NCBI GenBank assembly: GCA_964437465.1
Contig: CAYTGI010000003.1
Coordinates: 5,731 to 69,730, forward strand
Length of the DNA: 64,000 nt
Reading direction: 5' to 3'
Source: an uncultured Candidatus Saccharibacteria bacterium
GTDB taxonomy: Bacteria > Patescibacteriota > Dojkabacteria > J137
In this document: in pieces, positions 3,230 to 64,000 of the stretch
Position numbering within the stretch: position 1 is the stretch's first letter
Layout of the letters: each line of letters starts with the position of its first letter
Position numbers and translations under genes: made by a program
The notes under the pieces: generated by a model
The model's database searches: none
Told to the model about the DNA's origin: nothing
What the model saw: only the letters and a program-made list of their open reading frames with translations

Positions 3230-3748
3230 TTGAAAAACTATTTCCAAGCCAATCCAGACAAACCATTTCACCTCTCAATAGGCGCTGTAGTAATGAACGA
3301 AGATTATTCTAAAGTTCTTTTTCATCACATTCCTAAGTTTCAAGATTATGAAGACATTTATTTACTTATGAGAGAAAGTATGGAAACTGAAGAAAAATTT
3401 GAAGATACACTTACTAGAGGTGTTAAAGAGGAATTTGGTGCAGAAGTAGAGATTATTGATTTCCTAGGATCACTTGTTGCGATTGATAATTGGTTCGGGG
3501 AGATTAATAAAGAAACAGAAGTTCAAAAAACAACACTATATTTTCTTACTAAATTTAAGTCTCAAGATAAGAATCAAAGAGTAGATGAAGGAACAATTGA
3601 ATCGAAGTCTACTCTAGTTTGGTTAAGCATTGAAGAGGCTATAGAAAAAATGCGTAATTTCTTTTCAAAATATAAGATTAATAATCTGAATGAAGTGGAT
3701 GTACTCAATAGAGCTAGAGAATACATAGATATCCACATGCTCACATAG
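3230..3748 (+). CDS. NUDIX-family hydrolase
   Basis: Nudix-box-like segment RESMETEEKFEDTLTRGVKEEFGAEV, read against the REx2EExG signature. Size (172 aa) is typical. Confidence 0.5.
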   Translation: MKNYFQANPDKPFHLSIGAVVMNEDYSKVLFHHIPKFQDYEDIYLLMRESMETEEKFEDTLTRGVKEEFGAEVEIIDFLGSLVAIDNWFGEINKETEVQKTTLYFLTKFKSQDKNQRVDEGTIESKSTLVWLSIEEAIEKMRNFFSKYKINNLNEVDVLNRAREYIDIHMLT

Positions 3749-3771
3749 AGAATAATCTATTTATAATCCCC

Positions 3772-4044
3772 TTGCAAAAAAGGTCAAAGAATCATAGATT
3801 GTATACACAATTATTATTTTCAAACATGCCAAACTCATTTAAGACTTATTTCTGGGACATTGACTCAGAAAAGCTTAATCTCGAAGAAGATTACATTTAT
3901 ATTATTTCAAGATTATTAGAACTGGGTAAGTTCGAATCTGTACAATGGATATTCAACCATTACTCTAAACTAGATATACAAGATGCACTATATAATGGAA
4001 ATGTTTCAGAACAGACAAAAGAATTTGTTAAAGCTTTAATATAA
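3772..4044 (+). CDS. Hypothetical small protein, possible cognate partner (antitoxin-like) of the downstream nucleotidyltransferase
   Basis: 90-aa ORF ending 4 bp before the AbiEii-like gene on the same strand. No motif recognised. Confidence 0.35.
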   Translation: MQKRSKNHRLYTQLLFSNMPNSFKTYFWDIDSEKLNLEEDYIYIISRLLELGKFESVQWIFNHYSKLDIQDALYNGNVSEQTKEFVKALI

Positions 4045-4047
4045 ATA

Positions 4048-4677
4048 ATGTTATATAAAGAGGTTTTGCCAAAAAGATCATATGATCTCTTAGAGGAGAT
4101 TATGTTAAATCAGGATTTTGATGACTTTTATCTAGCTGGCGGGACAGCTTTAGCACTTCAACTTGGACATAGAATATCAATTGACTTAGACTTTTTTACA
4201 CAAAGTCAGTTCCCGATCTCACTTCTAAATGCATTTCCAGATAACTATACAACCAACTACGCAAGAAGAAATTCTATTCAAGTTATTTCGAGAGAAACTA
4301 AAGTTGAATTTATTTACTGGGCATTTCCGATTACAAAAGAAAAAAAAGTAGTTCAAGGTTTGAGACTTCTCGATCCAATTGACATTGGCTTGATGAAGCT
4401 TTTAGCGATACAGGGAAGAACGACTAAAAAGGATATTGTCGATTTGTATATTATTGATAAAGAAGTAATAAAATTAGAGGAATTAATTAAGCTATTCCAA
4501 GAACACTATCCAAAAGAAAGTTTTAATCTCTATCAAAGTTTCAAAGATATTTTCAATACAAAAAAAATTCATAGTGACCCTATGCCTAACATGAACACAG
4601 AATGTAACTTTAATGAGATTTTTGAGATGATGAAAGAGTTAGTAATTGGGGTTGTTAAGAAAGATTTTTTAAGTTGA
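4048..4677 (+). CDS. AbiEii/AbiGii-like nucleotidyltransferase (type IV toxin-antitoxin toxin family)
   Basis: N-terminal motif FYLAGGTALALQLGHRISIDLDFF is characteristic of the AbiEii nucleotidyltransferase fold. Tightly coupled to the upstream small ORF. Confidence 0.55.
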   Translation: MLYKEVLPKRSYDLLEEIMLNQDFDDFYLAGGTALALQLGHRISIDLDFFTQSQFPISLLNAFPDNYTTNYARRNSIQVISRETKVEFIYWAFPITKEKKVVQGLRLLDPIDIGLMKLLAIQGRTTKKDIVDLYIIDKEVIKLEELIKLFQEHYPKESFNLYQSFKDIFNTKKIHSDPMPNMNTECNFNEIFEMMKELVIGVVKKDFLS

Positions 4678-5214: not shown

Positions 5215-6537
5215 ATGAAAGATAATAAACAAAGATTCTCTAAGAGAGGGTCCAACAAAGATAGAAGAAATTTTAAAAATAAGAAAGGATCAGGAGGAGG
5301 ATATCAAAAAAATCCAAGATTCAACAATAATAGAAATAACAAAAGTAGAGGAAATAGGGGTTCTAGAGGTGATCGTATAAATATACCTTTAGAAAAGTTG
5401 TTTAATAAAAGACAAGAAGGTGAGGTAGAAGCAGAGTTTAAGCCAATGTTTAGGATTGAAGACTTACCTATAGATGATAGATTAAAGCAAAATGTCATAA
5501 GCAAAGGTTTTAAAAATCTTACGCCAATTCAAGATCAAGCTATTCCAGCTTCTGTAATAGGCCAAGATGTTGTTGGTATTGCTGATACTGGTAGTGGAAA
5601 AACAGCTGCATTTCTAATTCCTGCTATTAATAAAACTATTCAAGATCCTAAAAAAAATGTACTAATCATTACTCCAACAAGAGAGTTAGCTCTTCAAATT
5701 AATAAGGAATTTAGAGATCTTGCTAAAGGATTAAATATATTTTCTGCAGTATGTATTGGTGGAACAAATATGAAAAACCAAGTTTTTTTCTTAAGAAAGA
5801 AACATAATTTTGTTATAGGAACCCCGGGTAGAATACTAGATTTGGTAAGAACAAAAAACTTAAAGCTAAACAATACACACACATTAATTTTAGATGAAGT
5901 AGATAGAATGTTAGATATGGGGTTTATTGATGATGTAAAAGAGATTATTAATAATGTACCCTCATATAGACAAACATTATTCTACTCAGCAACGAATTCT
6001 AAACCAGTCTACAACTTAATGAGGAAGTTCTTAGCAGTAGATCATGCAACCTTCTCTGTTAAAAAAAGAGATACTAGTAAAAATGTTGATCAAGACATTA
6101 TAGAGGTAACTATCAATGATTCAAAAGAAGAAGTACTATTATCAATCTTGAACCAAGATAATGTAGAAAAGACAATTGTATTTGTTAGAACAAAAAGATT
6201 CGCAGAAAAATTAACTAGCTATCTTCAAAAAAATAAAATGAAGGTTGTATCACTTCATGGTGATAAATCTCAGAATCAACGAAAAAGAAGCTTAGAACTT
6301 TTCAAACAGGACAAAGTTGATATTCTCGTAGCTACCGATGTTGCAGCTAGAGGTCTAGATATTCCAGATGTTAGTCACGTTATCAACTATGATCTTCCTG
6401 AGAATTATGAGGATTATATTCATAGGGTTGGAAGAACAGGAAGAGCTGACAATGTAGGATCTGCACTAAATTTTGTCGATCATAAAAAATTAACAAATAG
6501 AGAAAGAGAAGAACTTTCAAAGATTAAAAGCTCATAG
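5215..6537 (+). CDS. DEAD-box ATP-dependent RNA helicase with R/G/N-rich N-terminal tail
   Basis: Q-motif and Walker A (DTGSGKTAAFLIPAI), DEVD box (DEVDRML), SAT, and HRVGRTGRA motifs. N-terminus is rich in RGG/NNRNN. Confidence 0.9.
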   Translation: MKDNKQRFSKRGSNKDRRNFKNKKGSGGGYQKNPRFNNNRNNKSRGNRGSRGDRINIPLEKLFNKRQEGEVEAEFKPMFRIEDLPIDDRLKQNVISKGFKNLTPIQDQAIPASVIGQDVVGIADTGSGKTAAFLIPAINKTIQDPKKNVLIITPTRELALQINKEFRDLAKGLNIFSAVCIGGTNMKNQVFFLRKKHNFVIGTPGRILDLVRTKNLKLNNTHTLILDEVDRMLDMGFIDDVKEIINNVPSYRQTLFYSATNSKPVYNLMRKFLAVDHATFSVKKRDTSKNVDQDIIEVTINDSKEEVLLSILNQDNVEKTIVFVRTKRFAEKLTSYLQKNKMKVVSLHGDKSQNQRKRSLELFKQDKVDILVATDVAARGLDIPDVSHVINYDLPENYEDYIHRVGRTGRADNVGSALNFVDHKKLTNREREELSKIKSS

Positions 6538-10038: not shown

Positions 10039-10088
10039 AATTTGAGGTAGATTAAATAAGTTTTATGCCTAATAAATTTATATTAAAA

Positions 10089-10348
10089 AACTTACGAGAA
10101 GTAGGGGTCTGGGGGACTTAGCAGTCAACCATGCGAGTAAGTTAGACTTGCTAAGCCCCCAGGACTTTTGCATACTTTTAGTCATAAAAGTATGTATATA
10201 AACTTTTTCTTATCCCTGTACTTTTTATAACTAAAAAGTACCAAAAAGTTTTGGGAAGAATTCCAGCCTATCTCTCAGTTACTCTTTGAGGCACGCATAT
10301 CAAGGAGAATTCTCCCCCTGCCTGCCGTCAGACAGGCAAAACCTCATG
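10089..10348. repeat. Copy A of a ~260-bp palindrome-rich repeat element (inverted relative to copy B)
   Basis: ~95% identical to the reverse complement of 26519-26775. Contains a long hairpin (ctgggggacttagca...tgctaagcccccag) and perfect palindromes catacttttagtcataaaagtatg, gtactttttataactaaaaagtac, ggagaattctcc, and a gcctgccg..caggc terminal hairpin. Confidence 0.85.
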
Positions 10349-10464
10349 ATACTATTACTTTATTTTGCTAGTTTGTAAAACTGGATATAAAACTTATGAT
10401 ATGTGATAAAAAACGTAACTCCTTTCTTCATACAACTTTCACATAACTTTGATAGAATCACTAT

Positions 10465-26380: not shown

Positions 26381-26518
26381 AGTTTTAGATATTTTGCCTA
26401 TACTATCTTACAAGGTAGGGATAAGAGAATCAATTTTTAGTATATATGTGTCTCTAAATTGATTATGTTTTATATCTACTAGCTAGTTTCTTCAACTAGC
26501 AAAATAAAGAATAAGTAA

Positions 26519-26775
26519 CATGTGGGGTTTGCCTGCCGGCAGGCAGAGGGAGAATTCTCCTTGTTAAGCGTGCCTCAAAGAGTAACTGAGAGATAGGCTG
26601 GAATTCTTCCCAAAACTTTTTGGTACTTTTTAGTTATAAAAAGTACAGGGATAAGAAAAAGTTTATATACATACTTTTATGACTAAAAGTATGCAAAAGT
26701 CCTGGGGGCTTAGCAAGTCTAACTTACTCGCACGGTTGACTGCTAAGACCCCCAGACCCCAACTTCTCGTAAGTT
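26519..26775. repeat. Copy B of the ~260-bp palindrome-rich repeat element (inverted relative to copy A)
   Basis: Reverse complement aligns along its full length with 10089-10348, with about 12 mismatches or indels. Confidence 0.85.
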
Positions 26776-26872
26776 TGTTATTGCTACTTTATTAGATATA
26801 AAACTAATTATTTTGTATACTCATTCAGTTTTAAGGTGACTTTGGGTCGCTTTGTTGCTATAATATGGTGTC

Positions 26873-47062: not shown

Positions 47063-47439
47063 TTTCTCTTCTTTTTAAGTTTAATTATGAATCTAAAGAA
47101 TATAAGTAGGCCTATTGTTGCAAAAAAGAAAATATGTTTAAGTAATTGATTTATGTCGACAATCGGCTCGAATTCTGATTTCCCATCATTCATCTTAATA
47201 AAACCAATAGGTTTAATACTTGAACTAATTCCATATCCTCCACCTTCTCCTTCAGCATCATCTCCAAGCTCATTTTTTCCTGTGCCCTTACCAATTCCTC
47301 CTCCTCCAGAATAAGAAACTTTTGAAACAGGAATGATTGTAGAACCATTCTTTTCTATTGGATCTCCGTAGACAGTTTTTGTATCAGAAGTTGACTCAAC
47401 TAAATTTTTAATTTGTTGTATTAAATCTTTTAGTTCCAC
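47059..47439 (-). CDS. GerW/YtfJ-like protein with Gly-rich loop and C-terminal transmembrane anchor
   Basis: Segment YGDPIEKNGSTIIPVSKVSYSGGGGIGKG...GGGYG...IKPIGFIKMNDG resembles the GerW/YtfJ family core. Assignment is from memory of that family. Confidence 0.4.
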   Translation of the reverse strand: MELKDLIQQIKNLVESTSDTKTVYGDPIEKNGSTIIPVSKVSYSGGGGIGKGTGKNELGDDAEGEGGGYGISSSIKPIGFIKMNDGKSEFEPIVDINQLLKHIFFFATIGLLIFFRFIIKLKKKRK

Positions 47440-47501
47440 AAACTAGTATATTTAAATCTAGAACTAAAGTCCAACTATCTTTTCTGTAGATCAAAGAATC
47501 A

Positions 47502-47507
47502 TATAAT
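47502..47507 (+). promoter_or_regulatory. Candidate -10 element upstream of the tRNA-Arg/tRNA-Lys cluster
   Basis: TATAAT lies 34 bp upstream of the tRNA-Arg 5' end. The -35 is weak. Confidence 0.3.
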
Positions 47508-47540
47508 GTTAAAATAGCAAAGCAAATTTTGGATTGATGA

Positions 47541-47614
47541 GCGCCAGTAGCTCAGCTGGATAGAGCAACTGCCTTCTAAGCAGTAGGTCCCAGGTTCGAA
47601 TCCTGGCTGGCGTA
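47541..47614 (+). tRNA. tRNA-Arg (TCT)
   Basis: Cloverleaf GCGCCAG/GCTC-AGCTGGATA-GAGC/ACTGC-CTTCTAA-GCAGT/CCAGG-TTCGAAT-CCTGG/CTGGCGT-A. Confidence 0.85.
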
Positions 47615-47649
47615 TGAAAGTAAATTAAAAATTCAAAAGGTTATAATTC

Positions 47650-47670
47650 AAATCTAGTTGGTCCTATAGC
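47650..47670 (+). pseudogene. tRNA 5'-fragment (acceptor + D-arm-like, GGTCCTATAGCTCAACCGGTA) immediately upstream of tRNA-Lys
   Basis: 21 nt closely matching the 5' part of the adjacent tRNA (GGGCTGATAGCTCAATCGGTAGAGC). No anticodon arm, T-arm or 3' half follows. Confidence 0.5.
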
Positions 47671-47681
47671 TCAACCGGTAT

Positions 47682-47764
47682 CCCGAAGAATGGGCTGATA
47701 GCTCAATCGGTAGAGCAGTTGCCTCTTAAGCAATTGGTTCTGGGTTCGAGTCCCAGTCAGCTCA
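47682..47764 (+). tRNA. tRNA-Lys (CTT)
   Basis: Cloverleaf GGGCTGA/GCTC-AATCGGTA-GAGC/GTTGC-CTCTTAA-GCAAT/CTGGG-TTCGAGT-CCCAG/TCAGCTC-A. Flanked by the 11-bp inverted repeat tcccgaagaat/attcttcggga. Confidence 0.8.
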
Positions 47765-47964
47765 TTCTTCGGGATTAAGCGATTGGTTGTGGGCTCCGAA
47801 AATTAAAATCCAAAGGATTTTAAAATTTTCGAGAGTCCTCGTTTTTCTATTGAAGACAAAATTAAAGAAAAAACGGGATTCGAGTCCAACCCGGATCATA
47901 AATAGGAAAAAAAGAATGAATTTTGATTTTGGAGACTAATGAAGAAATATATAGCAACTAAGGT

Positions 47965-49491
47965 TTAGCCATTTTCGTACTTATCTATCTTTTCCTTTAA
48001 TTCGATCATCTTAAGTTCTCTATCTACCATTAATCTATTCAGGTTTTCCAATTCTTCGTTTCTTTTTCTCAATTCATCTTCAATCATCTTACTTTCATTA
48101 ATATTAGTAGAGATGCTAGCTACAGCATAGATTTCTCCTTTATTGTTGAATAAAGGAAATTTTCTTGAAGAGTAAATTAGATCTCCATGATCCTTTGTAG
48201 GTAGTATTTCTTCAACAGTTATCTCATCTCCTATTGTTAAAGCCTTCTTGTCATTTTCCTCAATTTTATTCGCAATCTTAACTGGAAAAAGATCTAAATC
48301 TAGTCTATTTTCAATTCTATGGAATCTAATATCTAATATTTCAATAAATGCCTTATTTGCAAAAACGTACTTACCATTAAGGTCTTTAACATATATAAGT
48401 GCGGAGGTATTGTTTAAAATATCACTAAATCTGGATTTAGTGATTTGTAAATCCTCGTTTAATTTTTCAGCCTGATTATGTATTTTACTTGTAGAGAAGC
48501 TGACAAGATATATGATAATTCCACTAGTTAAAGATAAAGCACCTCCGACAAATAGAACTAATAAAGGAAAAATACTTAACACCTCTTCATTAGAAAAGTC
48601 AGGCTCAGAATAAATTAAAAATTTTATTCTTTTACCACCAAAAGATATAGTTTTTTCGTTTTTTAAAGTTTCATCAGAGACAATATCTATAACTTGACCT
48701 CTTGAATATATAATATTGTTATCTTCCCATACTTCTATATAAACATCAGCACTTTGTTTAGGTGAATTATCAAATATAGTGTCAAAAAAATCATTAACAC
48801 TGAAAGCCATAGAAATAAATCCTTCTACTTCAAGTTGATCTACAGGTTCATTGGTAGTATGTATATCTGCTGGAAAAGGGATTAGGTAATGAAATCCTGG
48901 TTCATTATTAATTAAAAAGTTAAATACATCCGAAGCTGAAGCTAACCCAGATGTCCAAGCACGATTCAAAGCTTCTCTTCTTACACTTTCTTGCCCGATA
49001 TCCCAGCCTAATGTATCCTCAAGTCCTTCTAATGGATAAATATATGTAGCAGGAAAGTATGGTCCGGTTTCAGATGTGCTCTCTATTTCAAACTCATCAA
49101 GTCCATCGTAGACAACCGAACGATCATTTCTAATACTTGTTTCAAATTCATCTACTGCATCTTTGGGTATTATCGGGACATAATAAACTGAGGCAATACC
49201 CCTCAAAGAATGTAAACTTAAAATATGACTGAAGTATTCTATCCAGCTTTTTCTATTAAATTCTTCTAATAAGTTAAAAGTTGAGCTTGCATCTTTTAAG
49301 ACAATCTCGTAGTTATCAATTTGACTTTCAGCGCTTGCGATGAGATTTTCAGAAGCTATGTCAAATCTTTCTCTTGATATATTTTTGAAAGAGTTCATTA
49401 GGATGTATGAAGAAGTAATAGTCAATATAATTAATACTAGAGGTATAAGGTATACTGACAATTTTAATATTTTTTGAAACTCTTTCTCCAT
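47965..49491 (-). CDS. CHASE-like periplasmic sensor + PAS domain membrane protein lacking kinase/output domain
   Basis: Transmembrane segment, ~270-aa extracytoplasmic domain, second transmembrane segment, PAS (ALIYVKDLNGKYVFANKAFIEIL), then a coiled coil and stop. No HisKA or HATPase. Confidence 0.55.
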   Translation of the reverse strand: MEKEFQKILKLSVYLIPLVLIILTITSSYILMNSFKNISRERFDIASENLIASAESQIDNYEIVLKDASSTFNLLEEFNRKSWIEYFSHILSLHSLRGIASVYYVPIIPKDAVDEFETSIRNDRSVVYDGLDEFEIESTSETGPYFPATYIYPLEGLEDTLGWDIGQESVRREALNRAWTSGLASASDVFNFLINNEPGFHYLIPFPADIHTTNEPVDQLEVEGFISMAFSVNDFFDTIFDNSPKQSADVYIEVWEDNNIIYSRGQVIDIVSDETLKNEKTISFGGKRIKFLIYSEPDFSNEEVLSIFPLLVLFVGGALSLTSGIIIYLVSFSTSKIHNQAEKLNEDLQITKSRFSDILNNTSALIYVKDLNGKYVFANKAFIEILDIRFHRIENRLDLDLFPVKIANKIEENDKKALTIGDEITVEEILPTKDHGDLIYSSRKFPLFNNKGEIYAVASISTNINESKMIEDELRKRNEELENLNRLMVDRELKMIELKEKIDKYENG

Positions 49492-49734
49492 TAATACATC
49501 TTAAATAAATAGTCTTTACATGTAAATTACATTTATTTAAGAATAGTAGCTTATGAGGTATAATTCATAGCAACTTACTTGGTGGCTATTGCTCCCCGCA
49601 AGGCGGGACTAATGTGGTCATATATTTTTACTACAATACGTTTGTAAAAATGTGACCTTATTGAGCAGTCTCCAACTTCGCTATTTGTATATCTATGTTG
49701 ATATAGTGAAGAAATGACATTACATAGAGTATTT

Positions 49735-49763
49735 GGTGGCTATAGCTCAGTTGGTAGAGCGTC
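49735..49763 (+). pseudogene. tRNA 5'-fragment (GGTGGCTATAGCTCAGTTGGTAGAGCGTC) upstream of tRNA-His
   Basis: 29 nt nearly identical to the first 29 nt of the adjacent tRNA-His, then diverges. A shorter similar piece (ggtggctattgctcc) lies at 49581-49595. Confidence 0.5.
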
Positions 49764-49783
49764 AAAGTTTTAGATTATAGTGG

Positions 49784-49860
49784 GGTGACCGTAGCTCAGT
49801 TGGTAGAGCGTCGGTTTGTGGTACCGAATGTCGTGGGTTCGAGCCCCATCGGTCACCCCA
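49784..49860 (+). tRNA. tRNA-His (GTG) with encoded G-1 and CCA
   Basis: G-1 then GTGACCG/GCTC-AGTTGGTA-GAGC/TCGGT-TTGTGGT-ACCGA/GTGGG-TTCGAGC-CCCAT/CGGTCAC-C-CCA. Confidence 0.85.
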
Positions 49861-49876
49861 CTGTAATTTAGAAGAG

Positions 49877-49926
49877 GTTTGCCTGCCTGCCGGTAGGCAG
49901 GTGGTACCGAATGTCACGGGTTCGGA
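49877..49926 (+). repeat. Third copy of the gcctgcc-ggcaggc hairpin motif, followed by a tRNA-His 3'-arm-like fragment
   Basis: ggtttgcctgcctgccggtaggcagg matches the terminal hairpin of the 260-bp element. It is followed by ggtggtaccgaatgtcacgggttcggac, close to the tRNA-His anticodon-arm and T-arm sequence. Confidence 0.6.
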
Positions 49927-50221
49927 CTTAATTTTCTAAACGATCCCGATACAATCGGGAGAGTTTATAGAAAATTTGTTCCCGTTTCGGGAGCCCCGTT
50001 AGCCACCCAAAGATTTTTTCTGCAGTTTATAATACACTCAAAAAGTTGACAGTATTAGGAAAATTTTACTCTAATAAAATATATTATAGGTGGTTTAAAA
50101 TCGTTTTAAGTATCAAAACACCATTTTTTTATAGTTTTTAAATATATTTGAGAAAATTCTTCTTTTTGAATAACTCAGTTTGAAGTAAAAAATTGTTTTT
50201 CTTTAACTTTATAAGCTAAAC

Positions 50222-54410: not shown

Positions 54411-57400
54411 TTATTTTTTTCTTTTATATTTACTATATTTTCTATTTTGTCTTCTATCTTTTTTAAACTTATCACCAAAAGTGATACAAGAAGCTACCGC
54501 CCCAATTATTACTACTATTAAAACGAGATTAGTTAAATTAAACCCAGTAGGAAGTAGTTCTGAAATAAATGTTTCTTCAGTTTCATCAGTTTCTGAGGAT
54601 TGCTCTCCTTCTTCTGCTGTTAATTCCCAAACTGTTGGATCTATTGGCATCTCTGTTGAAGGGTCATCGGTACATACTGGTTGTTGATTAAATTCAATCT
54701 CATCGTTAATATCTCCGTCTTGATCATCATCCCAGTTTCCGCAGGCTTGATTTTGGACCATAATCATATCCTCAGGTATTGTAATTCTAAAAGTTAAAAC
54801 CACTTCATTTTCTGAATTTTCCTCATCAGTTCCTCCTGGATCAGGACCAATATTTCCTTCCCATACTAATTCCTCTGATATTTCGTTATACATGCAGTTA
54901 GTTGTTATTGAAATACCTCTAGGTTCACATGTAAAACTATTATCAACATAACTTGTTCCTTCTGGAATTGTATCTACAAGAATTACATCTAAAGCTTCAG
55001 TATTTCCATCATTCATCCATACCTGTTTCCATTCAAGCTCAGGTAAGCCCACTTCATTAAAAACTTTCTTTCCTGTAGGAGGGTCGAAAACGTTAGAATA
55101 AACAACTGGAGTTTCGGTAAAGTCTTCATTATCATCATCGTCTTCTTCATCAGAATATTTGTAAGAAATATAGACTTGGTTGTCTATCGTTTCAATTAAG
55201 GAATCATTTAGCTCTCTAACATCAACAGCAAAAACAACATCTCCAGATTCTCCAACTTCAAGATACCCTAGAGGAAACGCACAAACACTTCCAGCATTTC
55301 CATTTGGATCACAAATCCAGCCTGGGGTGCTTAGTGAAGAGTTGAAAGTAGTATTTTGTGGGACGTATTCAGTTATTACAGCATCTTCAGCATCCATATC
55401 ACCTCCATTTCCATAATTCAGTGTATATAAAAGTGTTTCTCCATATCCTATTTCTTCAACTTGAGGTTCTTTATCTATTCCTAAATTAGGTTTTGCGTCA
55501 ATATCGTCAGTATCAGTATCCTGATTATCATCAGGATTAAAATCTGGACCGTATTCTTCATCATAGTTTATTGAAGCAGCATTATAAATCTGATCCTCTC
55601 TAGCAGGTAAACTGTTATCCACATCTACAGCAAATAGAACTTCGTCTGTTTCTCCTGCTCCTAAGGATCCATAATCAAATACACATAGCTGATCAGGTTC
55701 TTCGTCGGTTGTGGAGCATGACCATCCTGGAGTACTATCTGATGAGTTAAAGCTAGTAAATTCTGGGGTAAAATCCTCTATTAACACATTGTTGGCGGTT
55801 GTGTTACCTTTATTTTCTATAGAAAGTGTATAGATTATAGTTTGTCCTGCATTAACAATTGTAAGTCCATCATCCTTAACAATAGATAAGTCTATCTCTC
55901 TTCTTACAGGGGTATCTTCATCGTCACTATTATTACCTGGTGTTAAGTCAGGACCACTTGCCCAGTCATCACTAATAGATATTGTATTATCTATTTGATT
56001 AACACTTTCTGGCATAGAACTGTTGACAGTTACAACAAATAAAGCTGATCCAGTATCTGATGGATTTAAGGTTCCAACAGAGTACGTACATGTACTTCCA
56101 GCTGTATCATCCGGAGCGCATATCCATCCTGGAGTACTAGACCCGCTATCAAAGGTAGTATATTCCGGTACAGTTTCTGTCAAAATTACATTTGTTGATG
56201 TTTGGTTTCCAGCATTTTCATAGAAAATATTATAAACAATCTGTTCTCCATTAAATACATCAATACCTGAATCATTTTTTGTAACAACAAGATCTGGACC
56301 TGCAATGACAGGTGTAACTTCAGAATCACTATTGTCACCAGGGTTTTCGTCAGTTCCATTTGTGCCATCATCTGAAATTGTAACGTTATTAGTTACATCG
56401 TTTACTCCTCCTGGGAAGACTGCATCTGTATCTACAACAAAATCAACTGATCCGCTATCACCAACATCAAGATCGCCAATAGAGAAAGTACAAGTACTAC
56501 CATCATTATTATCAGGAACACATGACCATCCAGGAGTGCTTGATCCTGGATTAAAAGTTGTATTATCAGGAACTACATCAGTAAGTACAACTCCTGTTGC
56601 ATCTTGACTTCCCACATTTGAATAGTCAATTGTATAGGTTATTGGATCTCCAGGAGGAACTGTAACATTACTATCCCCTTTTGAAACTTGTAAATCAGGA
56701 GCTGCTGTAACTGGTGTTGTATCTGGATCATCATTATTTGCAGGAGTTGGGTCAGCTCCGTTTGTCCCATCATCACTGATTGAGGCTGTATTATCAATTT
56801 CATCGTATCCAGAAGGTAAGGTTGTGTCTAAATCAACTGCAAAAGTTATAGAACCTGAATCACCTGCATCTAGATCGCCAATTGAGAAAGTACATGTACT
56901 GCCTTCGTTATTATCAGGAACACATGCCCATCCTGAAGTACTCGTAGCGCTATTAAATGTTGTACCAGTAGGAACATTATCTGTTATCTCAACTCCAGTA
57001 GCATCTTGATTACCAGAATTTGTATAGTCTAAAGTGTATGAGACAGTATCTCCTGGTAAGGCTGTTGCTCCTCCATCATCTTTAGTTATTTCTAAATCAG
57101 GTGCAGCATCAAGAGGATCAGTATCGGTACTTGTATTATTTCCTGGAGTTGGATCATCACCATGAGTTCCATCATCTGAAACATCTGCAGTATTAGTAAA
57201 GTTATCTATTCCAGATGGAATATTAGAGTCTATATCAACAGCAAAGTCTATTGTCGTGTTTGCTCCGTCAGTCAAGGTTCCAACTGAATACGTACAAGTG
57301 CTTCCAGAAGAGTTATCTGGTAGACATGTCCAACCTGGTGAACTTGATCCGTTATTAAAAGTTCCATAATCTGGCACTGTATCTGTAATCTCTACATTAT

Positions 57401-60400
57401 CAGCTTGAAAATCACCAACATTCTCAATAAACAGTGAATAAACGGTAGTTGAACCAGGAGTTACAGAATTAACTCCATTAGATTTTGTTATCTCTAAATC
57501 TGGAGCAGTAATAGTTAAGTCATCTTGTGCATCAATATCGTTCGTAGTTCTCTCATTAGGATTTGAACCATCAATGCTTGAATACTGGTTGATAGTAGCA
57601 GTATTAGTAATGACATCACCTCTTGATTGTCCAGTATCAATAGTTACGTCAAAAGTTATTGTACTTGTATCTCCAACTGCTAAAGTTGCCCATGAAGCTG
57701 TGATTGTTCCTCCAGACTCACTTAATGTGTCTGGTGCTACTCCAGAGTCGTGTGTTAAGTTTCCATCAAAGGTTAAACCTGATGGTAGTGGATCTTCTAA
57801 ATCTATTTCAAATGCATCACTTGTACCAGTATTTTCTATAGTTATCGTAACCTCAATTGAGTCGTTTACTGGTGCTTGATCAGGATTAAAGTTTTTTGTG
57901 ATAGTAATTTCAGGTTCAACTACTGTTGTTGTTACATCATTTGAAATACTTGGAGTTCCGCTATTAACAGTAATCTCAGCATTATTAACCAAATCTGTTT
58001 GTCCTGGAGGAAGACCATCGTTTCCAACTACATCTAATACATCAGCTTCAAGCTGAATTGTGAAAGTATTATTACTTGGATTTCCATCAACTGGAACTGA
58101 AAATGCTCCGAAAGAGAATGTTACAGGATTTCCACTTGAAGCTCCTCCTGAAATTGTTGGACTTGGTACAGTACCGTTAAATCCTGTTGAATCAACTGTT
58201 CCAGATCCAGAAACATACTGCATACCGTTTGGGATATTATCTACTACTTCAAGTGATGTTATAGAACCCTCAGGAACTATTACTTCAATCTCATAGGTAA
58301 CTGTTTCTCCTATTGTTACCTCACTTCCAGCAGTATAAGTCTCAGAAGTTGTTACAAGAGATTTTGTAGTAGTAGAAGACTCAAGTGTAACTGGTGCAGA
58401 GTCAGAATCATTATAGTCATTTATAAGAAATCCAGAACCATCTCTTTCTCCATCACCATCTCCTGAATTACCTGGGATATTTGATCCTGTAGGATTACTG
58501 GTTGTTCCTGTTCCAGGAAGACTAGTATAGGTTAGATCTGCTGTATTAGGAATTGTTGTTCCGACTAGAACAGCGTTGTCAACAGTTCCACTTAGATCTA
58601 TTGTTAGAGTTTCACCAGGTTCAAGAAAGCTTATTGAGACATCTACTAGGTTACCTGGAATATTAGAATTATCTGTTACAACTCCAGAACCTGAAGCAGA
58701 TGGAGTTACTGAAGATAAAATAACATCAGAGTCTATTGAATCTAATACATTTACATCATAAGCATTCAAAGCATTATTTCCTGTAGAGGTATTAGTCACT
58801 ACAATCTGATACTCAATGGTGTCTCCAGCATCAAGTGGAGTGGTAGTAACTGACTTTGAAATGTCTAGCTCTGGCTCAGCAACTATCACACTGACGTTTG
58901 ATGAGTTAGATCCAACTGTACTTATCCCAACATAACCTTGGAACCTATTGTTAAGGGTAATTCCTGACTGATTCCCTGATTCATTTAAAACTAAAGCATT
59001 AAACTCAACGACAATATATTCATTATCTGCATCTCTATCATCATTTGTAATATCTCCAAATTTAAAGTAAATATCAGTTCCACTAGAGTAAGAGTCTGAA
59101 TTGGAGGTAGAGTTGCTAGAAATTGCATCATCAGGTAGTTCACACTCCGGAGTGAATGAATCTACGTTTGCTTCATTCCCAGTAAAATTAAGGTCTGGGT
59201 TTGCTCCACCAGTACATCCTAAACCTCCCGGGGTTAAAGTTGTTGAGGTTGTTGTAGCTGCATTAGATATAAATGCTACGAATGAAGTTCCGTCATTTAA
59301 AAATTGCATTCCATCAGGGAGTCTATCCCTAAATTTGAAGTCAGGTGTTATCCCTTCAGCGACTCTTGCTTCAAGTCTATATCTTACTATTTCTCCAATA
59401 GCAACTCTTTCAGTTCCCGCAACATTGGTTGAATGTGCTTCAGAGGTGGAAACTATAGATTTATTAGGAAATGGTTCGAATACATTTATTGTAGCGCTAT
59501 CCTCAGTAAAGTAATCGTTAGCGCTTCCTCCTGGATCACCAGTATTTCCAGTTCTCTCTGTAGAGTTAGTATTAAAAGTAGATTGAGCAGTTGTAATATC
59601 TCCTGGTAATGAAGTCCACTCAACCTCTGCATCATTATCTATTGTTTGCCCTGTAAAAACAGTATTATCTAGTGTAACGTCGTAAGTTAATGTACAATCC
59701 TCTCCTAGTGGTAATTCATCAATCGTTGCTATTAAAGTAGGAGCCCCAGTATCATTTAAAACAGGTGGTGTTATTACTCCAGCTGAACATGAAAAGTTAA
59801 ACGTTGCAGCAGTATAAGTAAGATCGGAAGGAATGACATCATCAAAGCTAACATTATAAGCATTTAGATCACTATTACCGGTGTGTGAAATAGTAACTGA
59901 ATATTGAACTGTATCTGACGCATCTGCAGATGTTGGAGAAGCACTTTTACTAACTTGAAGATCAGGTTCTCTAATAGTTACATTCGGTGCATTATCACTA
60001 ACTTGTCCTAAGCTCCAACTTAACTCTGCATCGTTATTTCTATTTTGATTTCTTACATTTGCTGCAGTATTTAGTACAACTACGTCGTAAGTTATAGTTA
60101 TAGTTTCATCCGTTAAGTTATCTGTGTCACTATTTGTTAAGGTTCCAAAATCAAAAGTTATGTCTTCCCCTGAGTTTATTGCCGTTGAGTTACTACATAC
60201 ATCCCCAAATGTACCAATACTTGTTGAAAGTCCTGCTGAAGCTACTATTGATGAACAACTTACGAATGCTAGACCAGTATCTAGAGCATCATTTACAATT
60301 GCTGAAGTGAGTGTTCCTTCAGGTATAGTTAGCTCAACTTCATAAGTTATTATTTCTCCAATAGCAACATTGTTACCTGAAGTATGAGCTTGATTTGTTG

Positions 60401-63400
60401 AGTCAATGGTTTTGTCAACTAAAGGTGTTAAAGTAGTCACTTCTGCAGTATCAAACCTTGGTTCAACCATGTGGTTATCACCATTTTCAACTCCTGCATA
60501 GTTAAAAATATCAGCAGTGTTAGTAATAACCTCTTCTGGTTCTACTGATGTGGTTAACTCAAGATCATATGTAATAACTGCTATATTTCCGCCACTAGTT
60601 GAAGAGAAAGAGTCAAGAGATCCTTGTGTAGGGCTTGGGTTCGTTAGCACAATTCCATCTTCAAATATAGGATTGACATCTGTACCATCAATAGGAGTGT
60701 TCGCCAAAGAGTTTCCAGCTCCATCTGTTATACATAAATTTAACCCAGATCCAGGAATTTGAAATCCAGCTTCAAGTGTGTCTTTGAATTGAACATCAAA
60801 AGCACCGTTTACTCCACTTCCTTCATTTTCTAAAACAATAGCAAAGGTTACAATATCACCTGCATCTAAATCAGAAATATCACTATTTATTTCAGTTGTA
60901 TCTAATGCATTAGAAGAAACTGTACCTGTAAACCTCTGACATCCACCACCTGGAGCTGAAAAACTAACAGGAGAAAAAGGATCAGGATCATAAACTGGGC
61001 TTTCTCCATTTGTTGCTACAACTCCTTTTGTTATTTGTATGTCAGGTTGAGTTAGCTCAAATTGAATTATTGAGTCTGCTACTTCAGAACTTAAGTTAGT
61101 AGAACCTTCATTACTTCTTATCTGATTAGTTAAAAATAAGCCATCAGCAAAAGGATCATCAGCAGCGTTAATAGTAAATAGAAGATCGATCTGACTACTT
61201 TGTGTACTTGGATCATCAAAATCTCCATAATCTATTGTAAGTTGGTTAGCTGAAGTTGTTGTAGATAATGTCGGAACAAGCCCAGGAGAACCTAGGACTC
61301 CTACAGTTATGTCGTAGAGTGTGTCTGTTGGTCCAAATTTAACTACACCAGCTGCTGGAGGGGAGGATGTGTAACCTCCGTCTGTCGGACTAGTACTATC
61401 GAAAGTCCATGCTGGCCCAATTACTTCATCAGCATCTGGATCATCTACTTGGAAAACAGGTAGTGGGAAAAAATCGTCAAATGATACTTCTTCAAAGTCA
61501 GAAGTTGGTAATGTAAATTCTACTCTAAAAGTTATTGAATCTCCAGGAGCTACTTGAACAGGAGGAGTGAAAGATGTATTTCCGTTAATAGCATAAATTG
61601 TTTTTGATATTGATCCTCTCTCAATTCCAACAGAAGCACTACTCTCATCGGCTTCCGTAGAGCCTGTAGGGGAAAATGAACTATTATCTAAGACTGATCC
61701 CTCAATACTCACATCATTTGTTAACGTATCTCCTTGGTCAACACTTGGATCTCCTGAAGGAAAATCATCAGAAAATGATTCTTGAATAATTGTTCGATAT
61801 GTAACCGTCCCTGTTGTAGCCCCGTCATTAAAGCTATCACAATCTGGGGTTACAGTCCCTGTTTGTTCAATACATCCTCCAAGTACATTAGCATCTAAAG
61901 CTCTAGTTACCAACTCGTCAGAGATATTAAAAATAATTGTGGTAGTTCCATCATTAGGAGCGGGATCAGCTGGAGTATAGTTTGACAAAACTTCGTAATT
62001 TGCTAAATCAAAATTGCCACTGCTAGTTGATCCGTGCTCAGTTAAAGATAGAGTAGGTGTAAATGTATCGTCAAATCTTTGTCCATCAGAAATAACGTCT
62101 GTGGAGACTATATCAGTAAAACTGAAAAAATCGGAAATTTGGAAGCTATATGTATATTCCAAAACATCTCCTGGAGAATTCCCAGGTGAATTATTATCTT
62201 GAAAAACGGAAACTGATTTTTGAATTGCAATAGATTTGTCTGTAAGAGTGTGATCATTACTTGTTATGTCTGAAGATACGGGTGTTGGTAAATCTCTTGT
62301 ATCTATTGGGTCCCAGGTTCCTTCAGCTGCTGCATCATTTACAGAAGTTGTATCGTTTCCAGTAGTTTCTGAAATTATTAATGAAGAATTGGCATCTTCA
62401 TAGGGTACAAAGAATGAAAATGTTACAGAAGCATCGTTACTTCCTGTACCTCCAGTAACACTTGTACATGTAATTCTAAGTTCGTTATTTGGTGGATTTT
62501 GAGCTCCTGGTGTAGATGGCTCAGTATTTGTGGAACAAGTACCAGGAGAAACACTATCTACTTGTAAATATTCAATATTATCTGGGAGATAATCAATTAG
62601 ATCAAAATCATCTATAGTTTGTCCATCAGCTATATCAGCCGTTATTGTATACTGTCTTGGGAAATTAGGTCCTGTTGCTGTTTCAGACTCTGGCCCGATG
62701 TATGATTTACTAATTGAAAATAGAGTTGGTGTTAGAGATGAGGTGCTAAAAGTCTCAGTAATACTTGGATCGGATGTTGGATTATCTAGGGGATCTTCTC
62801 CAAATTGAAATCCTCCTCTAGCTTGAACATCTAAAGCAGTTGATAAATCAGCGTTTTCACTCATAGATACATTAACAGTTACATCCGCTGTAGGTTGTAA
62901 ATCAGTAAATGATCCAAAAGGTAGTTGAAGAGTGACTAAGGTATCTCCTGCAGTTCCACATATAGATAAAGGTGTATTTGGAGCAGTAACTGCATAGGGA
63001 TGATCTACGCATCCAGTACCTAACCCATCATCTGGAAATTCTTGGACAATGCTTGTAACAGAAGATCCTAAATATGTGGCACTTACAAAACTAAGTCCAT
63101 CTGCTTCGTCTCCAGGTCCAAAAGGAAAAATACCATCAGCTCCTGTGTTAGGGAAAATTAAATCTATAAATGGACCGTATCCAGTATCTGCACCACTATT
63201 ATTAAAGCTAACATTAAAAGAAAAATCTTCTCCTAATAATGATTCAGAAGGTAAAGAAGCAGAAACACTAGGAACAGCTGCAGCTTCTGTTTGACCTGTA
63301 AAAAAAATACTTAGTGCTGAGAATGCAATCGAGCTTGACGTTATTATAGCTAATGACACTACAGAATATCTAAGTGCCTTCTTTTTTAAATTCCTAGTGT

Positions 63401-63410
63401 TGATTTTCAA
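54411..63410 (-). CDS. Giant (2999 aa) cell-surface protein with multiple DUF11-type repeats and C-terminal LPXTG sorting signal
   Basis: N-terminal signal peptide. At least nine ~150-aa repeats open with P[DE]L.[IV][ST]K and carry GSTCT[FY]S..L. The C-terminus has LLPTGF, a hydrophobic helix and the tail KKDRRQNRKYSKYKRKK. Confidence 0.8.
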   Translation of the reverse strand: MKINTRNLKKKALRYSVVSLAIITSSSIAFSALSIFFTGQTEAAAVPSVSASLPSESLLGEDFSFNVSFNNSGADTGYGPFIDLIFPNTGADGIFPFGPGDEADGLSFVSATYLGSSVTSIVQEFPDDGLGTGCVDHPYAVTAPNTPLSICGTAGDTLVTLQLPFGSFTDLQPTADVTVNVSMSENADLSTALDVQARGGFQFGEDPLDNPTSDPSITETFSTSSLTPTLFSISKSYIGPESETATGPNFPRQYTITADIADGQTIDDFDLIDYLPDNIEYLQVDSVSPGTCSTNTEPSTPGAQNPPNNELRITCTSVTGGTGSNDASVTFSFFVPYEDANSSLIISETTGNDTTSVNDAAAEGTWDPIDTRDLPTPVSSDITSNDHTLTDKSIAIQKSVSVFQDNNSPGNSPGDVLEYTYSFQISDFFSFTDIVSTDVISDGQRFDDTFTPTLSLTEHGSTSSGNFDLANYEVLSNYTPADPAPNDGTTTIIFNISDELVTRALDANVLGGCIEQTGTVTPDCDSFNDGATTGTVTYRTIIQESFSDDFPSGDPSVDQGDTLTNDVSIEGSVLDNSSFSPTGSTEADESSASVGIERGSISKTIYAINGNTSFTPPVQVAPGDSITFRVEFTLPTSDFEEVSFDDFFPLPVFQVDDPDADEVIGPAWTFDSTSPTDGGYTSSPPAAGVVKFGPTDTLYDITVGVLGSPGLVPTLSTTTSANQLTIDYGDFDDPSTQSSQIDLLFTINAADDPFADGLFLTNQIRSNEGSTNLSSEVADSIIQFELTQPDIQITKGVVATNGESPVYDPDPFSPVSFSAPGGGCQRFTGTVSSNALDTTEINSDISDLDAGDIVTFAIVLENEGSGVNGAFDVQFKDTLEAGFQIPGSGLNLCITDGAGNSLANTPIDGTDVNPIFEDGIVLTNPSPTQGSLDSFSSTSGGNIAVITYDLELTTSVEPEEVITNTADIFNYAGVENGDNHMVEPRFDTAEVTTLTPLVDKTIDSTNQAHTSGNNVAIGEIITYEVELTIPEGTLTSAIVNDALDTGLAFVSCSSIVASAGLSTSIGTFGDVCSNSTAINSGEDITFDFGTLTNSDTDNLTDETITITYDVVVLNTAANVRNQNRNNDAELSWSLGQVSDNAPNVTIREPDLQVSKSASPTSADASDTVQYSVTISHTGNSDLNAYNVSFDDVIPSDLTYTAATFNFSCSAGVITPPVLNDTGAPTLIATIDELPLGEDCTLTYDVTLDNTVFTGQTIDNDAEVEWTSLPGDITTAQSTFNTNSTERTGNTGDPGGSANDYFTEDSATINVFEPFPNKSIVSTSEAHSTNVAGTERVAIGEIVRYRLEARVAEGITPDFKFRDRLPDGMQFLNDGTSFVAFISNAATTTSTTLTPGGLGCTGGANPDLNFTGNEANVDSFTPECELPDDAISSNSTSNSDSYSSGTDIYFKFGDITNDDRDADNEYIVVEFNALVLNESGNQSGITLNNRFQGYVGISTVGSNSSNVSVIVAEPELDISKSVTTTPLDAGDTIEYQIVVTNTSTGNNALNAYDVNVLDSIDSDVILSSVTPSASGSGVVTDNSNIPGNLVDVSISFLEPGETLTIDLSGTVDNAVLVGTTIPNTADLTYTSLPGTGTTSNPTGSNIPGNSGDGDGERDGSGFLINDYNDSDSAPVTLESSTTTKSLVTTSETYTAGSEVTIGETVTYEIEVIVPEGSITSLEVVDNIPNGMQYVSGSGTVDSTGFNGTVPSPTISGGASSGNPVTFSFGAFSVPVDGNPSNNTFTIQLEADVLDVVGNDGLPPGQTDLVNNAEITVNSGTPSISNDVTTTVVEPEITITKNFNPDQAPVNDSIEVTITIENTGTSDAFEIDLEDPLPSGLTFDGNLTHDSGVAPDTLSESGGTITASWATLAVGDTSTITFDVTIDTGQSRGDVITNTATINQYSSIDGSNPNERTTNDIDAQDDLTITAPDLEITKSNGVNSVTPGSTTVYSLFIENVGDFQADNVEITDTVPDYGTFNNGSSSPGWTCLPDNSSGSTCTYSVGTLTDGANTTIDFAVDIDSNIPSGIDNFTNTADVSDDGTHGDDPTPGNNTSTDTDPLDAAPDLEITKDDGGATALPGDTVSYTLDYTNSGNQDATGVEITDNVPTGTTFNSATSTSGWACVPDNNEGSTCTFSIGDLDAGDSGSITFAVDLDTTLPSGYDEIDNTASISDDGTNGADPTPANNDDPDTTPVTAAPDLQVSKGDSNVTVPPGDPITYTIDYSNVGSQDATGVVLTDVVPDNTTFNPGSSTPGWSCVPDNNDGSTCTFSIGDLDVGDSGSVDFVVDTDAVFPGGVNDVTNNVTISDDGTNGTDENPGDNSDSEVTPVIAGPDLVVTKNDSGIDVFNGEQIVYNIFYENAGNQTSTNVILTETVPEYTTFDSGSSTPGWICAPDDTAGSTCTYSVGTLNPSDTGSALFVVTVNSSMPESVNQIDNTISISDDWASGPDLTPGNNSDDEDTPVRREIDLSIVKDDGLTIVNAGQTIIYTLSIENKGNTTANNVLIEDFTPEFTSFNSSDSTPGWSCSTTDEEPDQLCVFDYGSLGAGETDEVLFAVDVDNSLPAREDQIYNAASINYDEEYGPDFNPDDNQDTDTDDIDAKPNLGIDKEPQVEEIGYGETLLYTLNYGNGGDMDAEDAVITEYVPQNTTFNSSLSTPGWICDPNGNAGSVCAFPLGYLEVGESGDVVFAVDVRELNDSLIETIDNQVYISYKYSDEEDDDDNEDFTETPVVYSNVFDPPTGKKVFNEVGLPELEWKQVWMNDGNTEALDVILVDTIPEGTSYVDNSFTCEPRGISITTNCMYNEISEELVWEGNIGPDPGGTDEENSENEVVLTFRITIPEDMIMVQNQACGNWDDDQDGDINDEIEFNQQPVCTDDPSTEMPIDPTVWELTAEEGEQSSETDETEETFISELLPTGFNLTNLVLIVVIIGAVASCITFGDKFKKDRRQNRKYSKYKRKK

Positions 63411-63577: not shown

Positions 63578-64000
63578 TCAATTCTGCTCTATCGGATTCG
63601 CCCTTACTACCAATCTTTTTTCTGCTGTCCATAATGGTGTACAAGTATATAAAGTTAAAATATGTTCATTTGTTTGTTCTTCTATATAAACTTCATCGGG
63701 ATTTACAATAAATACGTCAGAGACCTTGTATACATATTCCTGATTTTCCCAATAAACTGCAAGATAATCTCCAGTTTTAACTTTATCTAGGTGGTAAAAA
63801 GTATTGTTTCCCGTTGTGAATTGATATCTATGAGCTATTAACACCATGTTTCCTCCGTCAATTGGATTCCCAGAAAATTGCCTATGCCAAATACCTTTAT
63901 TTAAATTATCTATATCACCTCCTAAAATTTTTGAATCTAGAAAAATACTTGGCAGTATCAAACTGTTATCTCTTTTAGTTATTTTGTTGTCATCTTCAAC
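63578..64000 (-). CDS. Sortase (partial; N-terminus beyond window end)
   Basis: Catalytic triad context: LIAHR (His), TLYTCTP (Cys), RLVVRANP (Arg). The ORF runs off the window, so the true start is upstream of 64000. Confidence 0.75.
   Translation of the reverse strand, partial: VEDDNKITKRDNSLILPSIFLDSKILGGDIDNLNKGIWHRQFSGNPIDGGNMVLIAHRYQFTTGNNTFYHLDKVKTGDYLAVYWENQEYVYKVSDVFIVNPDEVYIEEQTNEHILTLYTCTPLWTAEKRLVVRANPIEQN

Follow-up and report, generated by a model that had tools for sequence, protein, structure and literature searches.

To our knowledge, bacterial tRNA genes have usually been viewed as stable single units, and the only disruptions known for them are group I introns and attachment (att) sites, tRNA genes being classic sites of integration. 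Outside bacterial tRNA genes, the closest described systems are the multi-intron, split and permuted tRNAs of archaea and the short palindromic repeats found in many genomes. In this work, we have analysed a 64,000-nt stretch of DNA from an uncultured Candidatus Saccharibacteria bacterium (contig CAYTGI010000003.1, positions 5,731 to 69,730; the window hereafter), in which two of the four tRNA genes, tRNA-His and tRNA-Lys, consist of an apparently working copy lying within the broken shell of its predecessor. In both cases the intact tRNA is enclosed by an inverted repeat of 12–16 bp, and the build recurs in dozens of uncultivated Patescibacteria together with a shared palindromic motif. We favour, at a probability of roughly 0.55, the reading that these tRNA genes have been overwritten at the DNA level by palindrome-flanked cassettes carrying the cognate tRNA, with the outer pieces left behind as relics.

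A tRNA-His gene inside an interrupted tRNA-His gene

At the tRNA-His locus, the remains of an outer gene fall into four pieces (a to d in Table 1), which are separated by three insertions (I to III). When the four pieces are joined, ARAGORN calls a tRNA-His(GTG) with a canonical cloverleaf, so the three inserts are pure insertions and no base of the old gene has been lost. The parse of this outer gene was guided by L128, a metagenome locus with the same layout. At the junction of insertion II and piece c, base 49901 is both the last base of the insertion and the first base of a 24/24 match to the relative L002 described below.

Insertion I is the one that carries a complete tRNA. Its arms form 16 pairs, three of them G.T (an inverted-repeat search gives 24 nt at 88%), and the whole cassette folds into a rod-plus-cloverleaf at -53.9 kcal/mol. 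The inner tRNA-His has the marks of its isotype, i.e., the G-1:C73 pair and the anticodon GTG, and it differs from both the outer gene and the tRNA-His of L002 at four acceptor pairs and two T-stem pairs, every one of which is compensated. We take this inner tRNA to be the working gene. As to the 20-nt palindrome of insertion II, L128 has an exact copy at the same site of its tRNA-His, and further exact copies lie in unrelated contigs.

The relative age of the two genes can be read from L002, an 8.3-kb NCBI contig and the only syntenic relative, which was found through a homologue of the 2-hydroxyacid dehydrogenase (61% identity). The window and L002 have in common the gene order FolD, dehydrogenase, YtfJ-like protein, tRNA-Arg, tRNA-Lys, CHASE sensor and tRNA-His. 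In L002 the tRNA-His is uninterrupted and is preceded, at 13 nt, by a GGTATAAT box, and the same box is present in the promoter-like site of the window. Because the uninterrupted tRNA-His of L002 matches the outer pieces and the same -10 box precedes it, the ancestral gene is the outer one, and the inner tRNA-His is the newcomer. The promoter-like site of the window, in turn, should be the ancestral tRNA-His promoter.

Upstream of piece a there is one more copy of the tRNA-His 5' end, fragment A. The two copies make up a 19-nt direct repeat (49576-49594 and 49730-49748, 89% identity), which corresponds to fragment A and the start of piece a, each with five upstream bases, and which brackets only ~135 nt of non-coding filler. 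No sequence similar to this filler was found in any fetched locus.

A decayed counterpart at tRNA-Lys

The tRNA-Lys locus appears to be an older and decayed version of the same build. Around the inner tRNA-Lys, which we also take to be the working gene, the inverted repeat is perfect over 12 bp and reaches 19 nt at 95% complementarity when the acceptor stem is counted. Positions 22-34 of the outer tRNA-Lys are absent, and its pieces do not join to a canonical tRNA. Since these positions are gone and the remaining stems are unpaired, the outer tRNA-Lys is apparently dead. At the corresponding place in L002 a hairpin (AATCCCG...CGGGATT) resembles the 5' arm of the window, and a 17-nt duplicate of the 5' end of the L002 tRNA-Lys lies 95 nt ahead of that gene, which indicates that the tRNA-Lys locus has been unstable in both lineages.

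Such fragments are far more frequent than expected by chance in a shuffle test. The window contains two pairs of D-arms spaced 10-40 nt apart, a spacing that is impossible between tandem complete tRNAs, and 100 shuffles yielded no such pair. A preliminary description of this DNA had reported a 21-nt tRNA 5' fragment ahead of tRNA-Lys, two 5' fragments ahead of tRNA-His, and 3' tRNA material downstream of tRNA-His. All of them are present and align to the tRNAs as claimed (Table 1), yet they are the split remains of the original genes rather than loose debris. The 6-nt piece GGTTTG, the joining of the pieces into a complete tRNA-His, the flanking inverted repeats, and the additional Lys pieces at 47775-47796 and 47876-47899 had gone unnoticed in that description.

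Nested tRNAs and palindromes in other genomes

We have searched for similar loci with the generic two-D-arm pattern TAGCTCARYYGGTA-N10-40-TAGCTCARYYGGTAGAGC, so that the loci are preselected for two D-arms, and have obtained matches in 5 viral contigs and at least 120 metagenome stretches. The intron mode of ARAGORN often misassigns such loci by joining the outer 5' half to the inner 3' half, and the matches were re-scored. After re-scoring, ~25-30 loci among the matches listed contain a complete tRNA within an outer tRNA whose acceptor strands pair 7/7. The nested isotypes are Thr (CGT, GGT, TGT), Val, Ile, Met, Lys (CTT, TTT), Phe and His, and in 14 of the 15 well-kept pairs the inner and outer anticodons are identical. 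Global MAFFT alignments of the loci were uninformative, and local alignments were used in their place. Proteins neighbouring the nested loci are named Patescibacteria, Parcubacteria or Spechtbacteria, and the loci belong to Patescibacteria.

Two kinds of element recur at these loci. One is a motif that bounds many of the inserts, …GGTAGA|CCTGCCCGCC-(A)GTCGCC-[tRNA]-GGCGA-GGCAGGCGGGG|GCA…, which is found at positions 23/24 and, in a permuted form, at 31/32. The other is the 20-nt palindrome: L128 repeats the tRNA-His build of the window with the same palindrome at position 34/35. Both the bounding hairpin and the palindrome also exist as empty copies, between genes as well as in the D loop, anticodon arm, T loop and variable arm of other tRNAs. 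The exact sequence CCTGCCTGCCGG(C/T)AGGCAGG was found at ~12 sites in the fetched loci, in 47 IMG/VR stretches, and twice in the 64-kb window, where 0 copies are expected by chance; searches of 50,697 cultured-phage records and of the plasmid records listed gave no exact copy. At many of the nested loci the outer 5' part alone is kept, or the outer loops are ruined. These decayed or missing outer 3' halves suggest a cycle that runs from fresh insertion to decay.

Several single loci deserve mention. The exception to the shared anticodon crosses isotypes and is seen in phage contigs from IMG/VR and metagenomes (L006, ~6080-6330, and L085): a complete tRNA-Asn(GTT) with CCA interrupts an otherwise perfect tRNA-Lys(TTT) exactly in its anticodon loop, following position 36/37, and has no flanking arms. 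In L063 (~6085-6330), which was found by chance, a tRNA-Gly(CCC) is nested in a broken tRNA-Gly(CCC) that also holds a palindrome, and a nested tRNA-Thr adjoins it, showing that several tRNA genes per genome can be affected, like in the window. In L079 (~10040-10400) three tandem truncated tRNA-Thr-like units, each with a D-arm remnant, a short anticodon hairpin, a T arm, an acceptor 3' strand and CCA, follow an intact tRNA-Thr. At 10558-10640 of L013 the palindrome runs on into a tandem (GGTAGGCAGG)n, so the arm of the element can expand like a microsatellite. The IMG/VR stretches with the palindrome (L131-L177) have GC contents of 33-70%; in one case a 92-nt tRNA-Met call has the palindrome as its variable arm, and in another the palindrome lies in a tRNA D loop (e.g., L161 2239-2330, L172 ~515). 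Carriage of the D-arm-class junction by phages was considered and rejected, as the 83 viral matches turned out to be unrelated coding sequence.

Within the window itself, one further site of the palindrome lies in the gene-free interval 26381-26872. There, ~245 nt of the forward strand (26518-26768) contain four hairpins and a closing terminal stem, with a minimum free energy of -93.2 against -63.4 +/- 4.6 in shuffled sequences (z = -6.5). GGTTTG precedes the first hairpin, like at the His locus, and this hairpin is again the CCTGCC/GGCAGG palindrome; there is no Rfam match to the region. This may be a structured RNA that is as yet unclassified, or one more pile-up of palindromic elements.

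Features of the region and of its neighbours

The window is AT-rich and bacterial, and ARAGORN and Rfam agree that tRNA-Arg, tRNA-Lys and tRNA-His are the only intact tRNAs at 47400-50200. In an Rfam search of this interval with E values up to 10, nothing beyond the three tRNAs rose above the gathering score (29 for tRNA), and group I introns and other Rfam families were absent. The features are collected in Table 1, where tRNA-Arg is the first gene of a conserved Arg-Lys-sensor-His block.

Table 1 Features of the tRNA-Arg to tRNA-His interval of the window, with positions counted from its first base.
Feature	Position	Strand	Basis and remarks
tRNA-Arg(TCT)	47541-47614	+	ARAGORN; Rfam 72.8 bits; ordinary, without flanking repeat; same gene and order in L002
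Relic 5' part (positions 1-21) of older tRNA-Lys, GGTCCTATAGCTCAACCGGTA	47660-47680	+	82% identity to 5' end of inner tRNA-Lys
5' arm ATCCCGAAGAAT of inverted repeat around inner tRNA-Lys	47680-47691	+	Continuous helix in fold
Inner tRNA-Lys(CTT), intact	47692-47764	+	Rfam 72.4 bits; ARAGORN
3' arm ATTCTTCGGGAT, first base being discriminator A73	47764-47775	+	Inverted-repeat search; fold
Relic of ancestral tRNA-Lys, positions 35-56, TTAAGCGATTGGTTGTGGGCTC	47775-47796	+	20/22 vs L002 tRNA-Lys; 19/22 vs inner copy
AT-rich hairpin at T-loop position of relic tRNA-Lys	47794-47835	+	Fold -23.3 kcal/mol
Decayed T-arm and acceptor 3' relic, GGATTCGAGTCCAACCCGGATCAT	47876-47899	+	75% vs 3' end of inner tRNA-Lys; stems unpaired as read from the sequence
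CHASE-PAS membrane sensor, 508 aa	47965-49491	-	Pfam CHASE 1.3e-24, PAS_4 1.1e-11
Promoter-like site TTAAGA-16-TATAAT	49537-49564	+	Best in window, 10/12 match; ahead of fragment A
Fragment A, duplicate of tRNA-His 5' end (G-1 to position 14, ~2 mismatches), ggtggctattgctcc	49581-49595	+	At ancestral start position
Filler between the two His 5' ends, 139 nt	49596-49734	+	Opens with small hairpin CCCGCAAGGCGGG from 49595, sharing last base of fragment A
Outer tRNA-His piece a (G-1 to C28), GGTGGCTATAGCTCAGTTGGTAGAGCGTC	49735-49763	+	29/29 vs L002 tRNA-His
Insertion I, 112-nt cassette: inverted repeat around inner tRNA-His	49764-49875	+	Arms 49768-49783 / 49858-49873
Inner tRNA-His(GTG), intact, with encoded G-1, C73 and CCA	49784-49860	+	Rfam 66.1 bits; ARAGORN
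Outer tRNA-His piece b, GGTTTG (positions 29-34)	49876-49881	+	Needed and sufficient for 5' strand of anticodon stem; layout parallels L128
Insertion II, 20-nt GC palindrome CCTGCCTGCC/GGTAGGCAGG	49882-49901	+	Within anticodon, between G34 and T35
Outer tRNA-His piece c (positions 35-57)	49902-49924	+	All 23 bases inside 24/24 match to L002 (49901-49924)
Insertion III, 67-nt AT-rich compound hairpin in T loop	49925-49991	+	Fold -32.6 kcal/mol; boundary ambiguous by one G
Outer tRNA-His piece d (3' part of T loop, T stem, acceptor 3' strand, C73, CA not CCA)	49992-50008	+	17/18 vs L002 (49991-50008)

Between the two tRNA loci lies the gene of a CHASE-PAS sensor. That it has no kinase or output domain, as had been reported, agrees with the Pfam search, in which CHASE and PAS are the only domains. 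The further suggestion that the gene was truncated at a rearrangement breakpoint does not hold. The orthologue of L002, which has 506 aa after one frameshift is bridged, aligns through its residues 7-503 with residues 7-506 of the window protein at 42% identity, also lacks a kinase, and ends in the same coiled coil (…DRELKMIELK…), with no HisKA or HATPase beyond that equal end point. The absence of the kinase is thus ancestral to both lineages and did not arise from a breakpoint at the tRNA loci here, and the sensor should be regarded as a complete gene apart from the tRNA phenomenon. The frameshift in L002 lies in an A-run and marks either a pseudogene or an assembly error.

Some other features of L002 have no equivalent in the window. 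The interval from tRNA-Lys to the sensor in L002 includes two genes of 136 aa that have no Pfam match, as well as more coding-like sequence (3316-4612 and 3100-3150), all absent in the window. At the contig edge (222-1683) a large serine recombinase gene (Resolvase, Recombinase, Zn_ribbon_recom) is convergent on tRNA-His and overlaps the 3' end of the tRNA by 12 nt; it is probably an integrated element of the relative. The searches for additional relatives gave little: the sensor protein as query in a large protein database returned only self-hits and no close relative, an exact look-up of the window proteins found no record, a scan of a genome collection with the 2-hydroxyacid dehydrogenase gave one 50% match without synteny, and the contigs of the other homologues (P0026, P0027) were non-syntenic or too short. 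Farther downstream in the window, the reverse strand at 54411-63410 carries a 2,999-aa open reading frame (ORF) that probably encodes a giant surface protein, with a C-terminal membrane anchor and numerous beta-rich repeat modules; a sortase-like ORF follows it at 63578-63961.

Discussion

In the reading that we favour, the ancestral tRNA-His and tRNA-Lys genes would have been broken by DNA insertions and their function replaced from inside. Each old gene would have received a compact cassette with a complete tRNA of the same isotype and anticodon, whose 12-16 bp inverted repeat directly prolongs the acceptor stem, and small palindromes would also have entered loop-coding positions: AT-rich hairpins in both T loops and, in the old tRNA-His, the 20-nt GC palindrome in the anticodon. 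The inner tRNA-His would now be transcribed within a long precursor from the old promoter ~220 nt upstream. The outer relics would be of two ages: recent at His, where all 76 nt are present, and old at Lys, where 13 nt have been lost and the stems are broken. A lineage would survive when the cassette carries the cognate tRNA, after which the old gene would decay, and the process would be lineage-wide in Patescibacteria. The rule of identical anticodons would follow because a surviving hit on a single-copy tRNA gene requires an insert with the cognate tRNA. The cassettes and palindromes are probably mobile, perhaps as hairpin or single-strand-DNA elements that enter loop positions, or they may spread by recombination via conserved outer-gene sequence.

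The state of the inverted repeats bears directly on this reading. Mispairs in the arms are G.U in 30 cases and A.C in 29, and this near equality means that the arms decay neutrally, as inverted repeats in DNA, and are not maintained as RNA helices; selection at the RNA level is thereby ruled out for them. That the outer genes are probably dead is suggested by the tRNA-Lys locus, where the outer gene is clearly decayed while the inner one is intact. Likewise, ARAGORN found no tRNA interrupted in the anticodon loop and lacking a backup copy in 0.94 Mb with 349 tRNAs, a limited test on a biased sample.

On the other hand, several observations weigh against DNA-level overwriting. The outer tRNA-His has no substitution against L002, whose proteins are only 42-61% identical, and at the best-kept loci stem mismatches are few in the outer genes (7 of 315 pairs) as in the inner ones (3 of 336), so that selection on the outer genes fits as well as recent insertion does. 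By ORF inspection, in which no profile search for RAYT or TnpA was run, no transposase, nuclease or recombinase lies consistently near the ~30 nested loci, so no enzyme can be named. The arms in the window are unique sequences and form no repeat family. Moreover, similarity is on average highest between an inner tRNA and the outer that surrounds it (0.86-0.87), against 0.75-0.82 with the outers and 0.79-0.84 with the inners of other loci, and in L111 inner and outer are identical. In L016 the 5' strand of the outer T stem is like the inner tRNA and the 3' strand is unlike it. These similarities hint at local copying, which would speak against the favoured reading, or at spread by recombination via conserved outer-gene sequence. 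Finally, the locus set was itself chosen by the pattern that demands two D-arms.

The clean outer genes lead to an alternative that we consider unlikely, namely that the outer tRNA-His with its three inserts is still made. The palindrome-bounded inserts, one of them holding a whole second tRNA, would then be removed from the RNA: RNase P and RNase Z would release the inner tRNA, and the halves would be trimmed and ligated, or annealed as a split tRNA. The same would apply to well-kept outer genes elsewhere. The exact insertions, the perfect cloverleaf with the right anticodon on joining, the lack of substitutions against L002, and best-kept outer stems near the cleanliness of the inner ones are all what a functional gene would show, as are a conserved GC helix at the junctions of pieces and inserts and paired changes in the outer T stem between L018 and L032. 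The rRNA genes of these bacteria are also rich in introns according to a meeting report (PMC10714607). Yet the outer tRNA-Lys in the same window is broken, outer anticodon or T loops are ruined at L059, L075 and L012/L018, and a functional outer gene leaves the same-anticodon rule unexplained. No bulge-helix-bulge could be drawn by hand at any of the three junctions, since the insert helices abut them and leave no 3-nt bulges 4 bp apart, and neither an Rfam intron match nor a G.U excess in the arms was found. No hairpin-only interrupted tRNA lacking a backup copy turned up either, and we know of no bacterial route by which an insert in the anticodon or the D stem could be removed.

The preliminary description had taken the fragments for hallmarks of serial integration and excision, or of rearrangement targeted at tRNA genes. 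The second of these stands in spirit, as both ancestral tRNA genes have been hit by repeated insertions and L002 shows that the locus is a hot spot. As for the first, att-site scars left by integrase-bearing islands that were later deleted would suit the role of tRNA genes as classic integration targets and the recombinase gene that overlaps tRNA-His in L002. The 19-nt direct repeat around 135 nt at His and the 17-19 nt repeat around 95 nt at the L002 tRNA-Lys also look like duplications of an att core. We nevertheless hold this explanation to be rather improbable. Neither the ORFs at 44-64 kb of the window nor Pfam searches of neighbouring proteins revealed a recombinase, integrase or island cargo, the only recombinase being that of L002, and none is consistently present at the ~30 nested loci. 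Integration yields the order tRNA, island, partial repeat, not a complete foreign tRNA 15-20 nt from both the old 5' and 3' parts. In addition, the inner tRNA is no crossover chimera, since both strands of its acceptor and T stems are changed, and symmetric inverted repeats centred on it are not att-like. At most, integrase scars account for the 19-nt direct repeat and the situation in L002. The local similarities could instead mean that no mobile element is involved and that the nested copies were made in place by replication errors (slippage, or template switching at tRNA inverted repeats), the inner copy later diverging or being converted. Besides the closeness of each inner tRNA to its own outer and the identical pair of L111, this would explain why inner and outer differ only in the acceptor stem at L074 and why the arms are locus-specific, abut the acceptor stem as snap-back synthesis would leave them, and have about equal G.U and A.C. 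The inner tRNA-His of the window, however, has 12 stem positions that are unlike the outer, and it is the outer that is identical to L002, the reverse of what a recent local inner copy predicts; the same GC motif and 20-nt palindrome occur in unrelated lineages and viral contigs, and insertion sites recur across different tRNA species. The chance of copying in place is hence put a little lower still. An assembly artefact, in which strain variants of tRNA loci were concatenated, is hardly credible, although the window comes from a metagenome-assembled genome and a single contig holds these proteins: the same architecture is present in more than 100 contigs from JGI, ENA, NCBI and Logan projects, L128 independently has the tRNA-His layout, and mis-joining cannot give precise, loss-free insert positions with complementary arms.

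Our literature searches on nested or interrupted bacterial tRNAs and on the palindrome found no description of either, which is not proof of novelty. Such structures have stayed unannotated because standard tRNA finders report the inner gene alone. If the replacement at the DNA level is true, it would be a new route of turnover for essential single-copy genes, and the elements would be a small class that survives by supplying a replacement for whatever it destroys. Should the outer genes still be in use, they would contain bacterial tRNA intervening sequences other than group I introns, and the origin of split and intron-bearing tRNAs would be reopened. An outer tRNA-His that is still made would represent an undescribed tRNA architecture of Patescibacteria, a counterpart of the archaeal multi-intron and split tRNAs in which a tRNA is part of an intron.

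Comparison with described systems

The archaeal multi-intron, split and permuted tRNAs (Thermoproteales, Nanoarchaeum, Caldivirga), with their transposing introns, resemble the present loci in having several inserts at non-canonical positions (D arm, anticodon, T loop), a perfect tRNA on joining, complementary sequences that flank the breaks, and related inserts in different tRNA species. The present case differs in its bacterial host, in the lack of a bulge-helix-bulge, in the insert that holds a complete tRNA of the same anticodon, and in the dead outer tRNA-Lys. The group I introns in the anticodon loops of bacterial tRNAs are likewise intervening sequences of bacterial tRNA genes whose presence differs between relatives, whereas our inserts have no group I fold in Rfam, are 20-112 nt long, lie outside position 37/38, and include a nested tRNA.

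With the integrative elements that target tRNA genes, i.e., the att sites of phages, integrative and conjugative elements and genomic islands, the loci share the tRNA target, the partial duplicates left behind and an insert that restores what was lost, and a recombinase does adjoin the tRNA-His of L002. In contrast to such elements, which bring a matching 3' segment, the insert here is ~110 nt long, carries a whole tRNA, lies inside the old gene, and has inverted rather than direct repeats and neither integrase nor cargo. Repetitive extragenic palindromes (REP) and bacterial interspersed mosaic elements (BIME), or elements like the miniature inverted-repeat (MITE) or palindrome-associated (PATE) transposable elements, are similar as short GC-rich palindromes that are identical over many sites and genomes, lie between genes, and occur in empty and loaded forms. 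Unlike these, the palindromes described here number only two in this 64-kb window, make no target duplication, are found inside tRNA genes at loop positions, and can enclose a tRNA gene.

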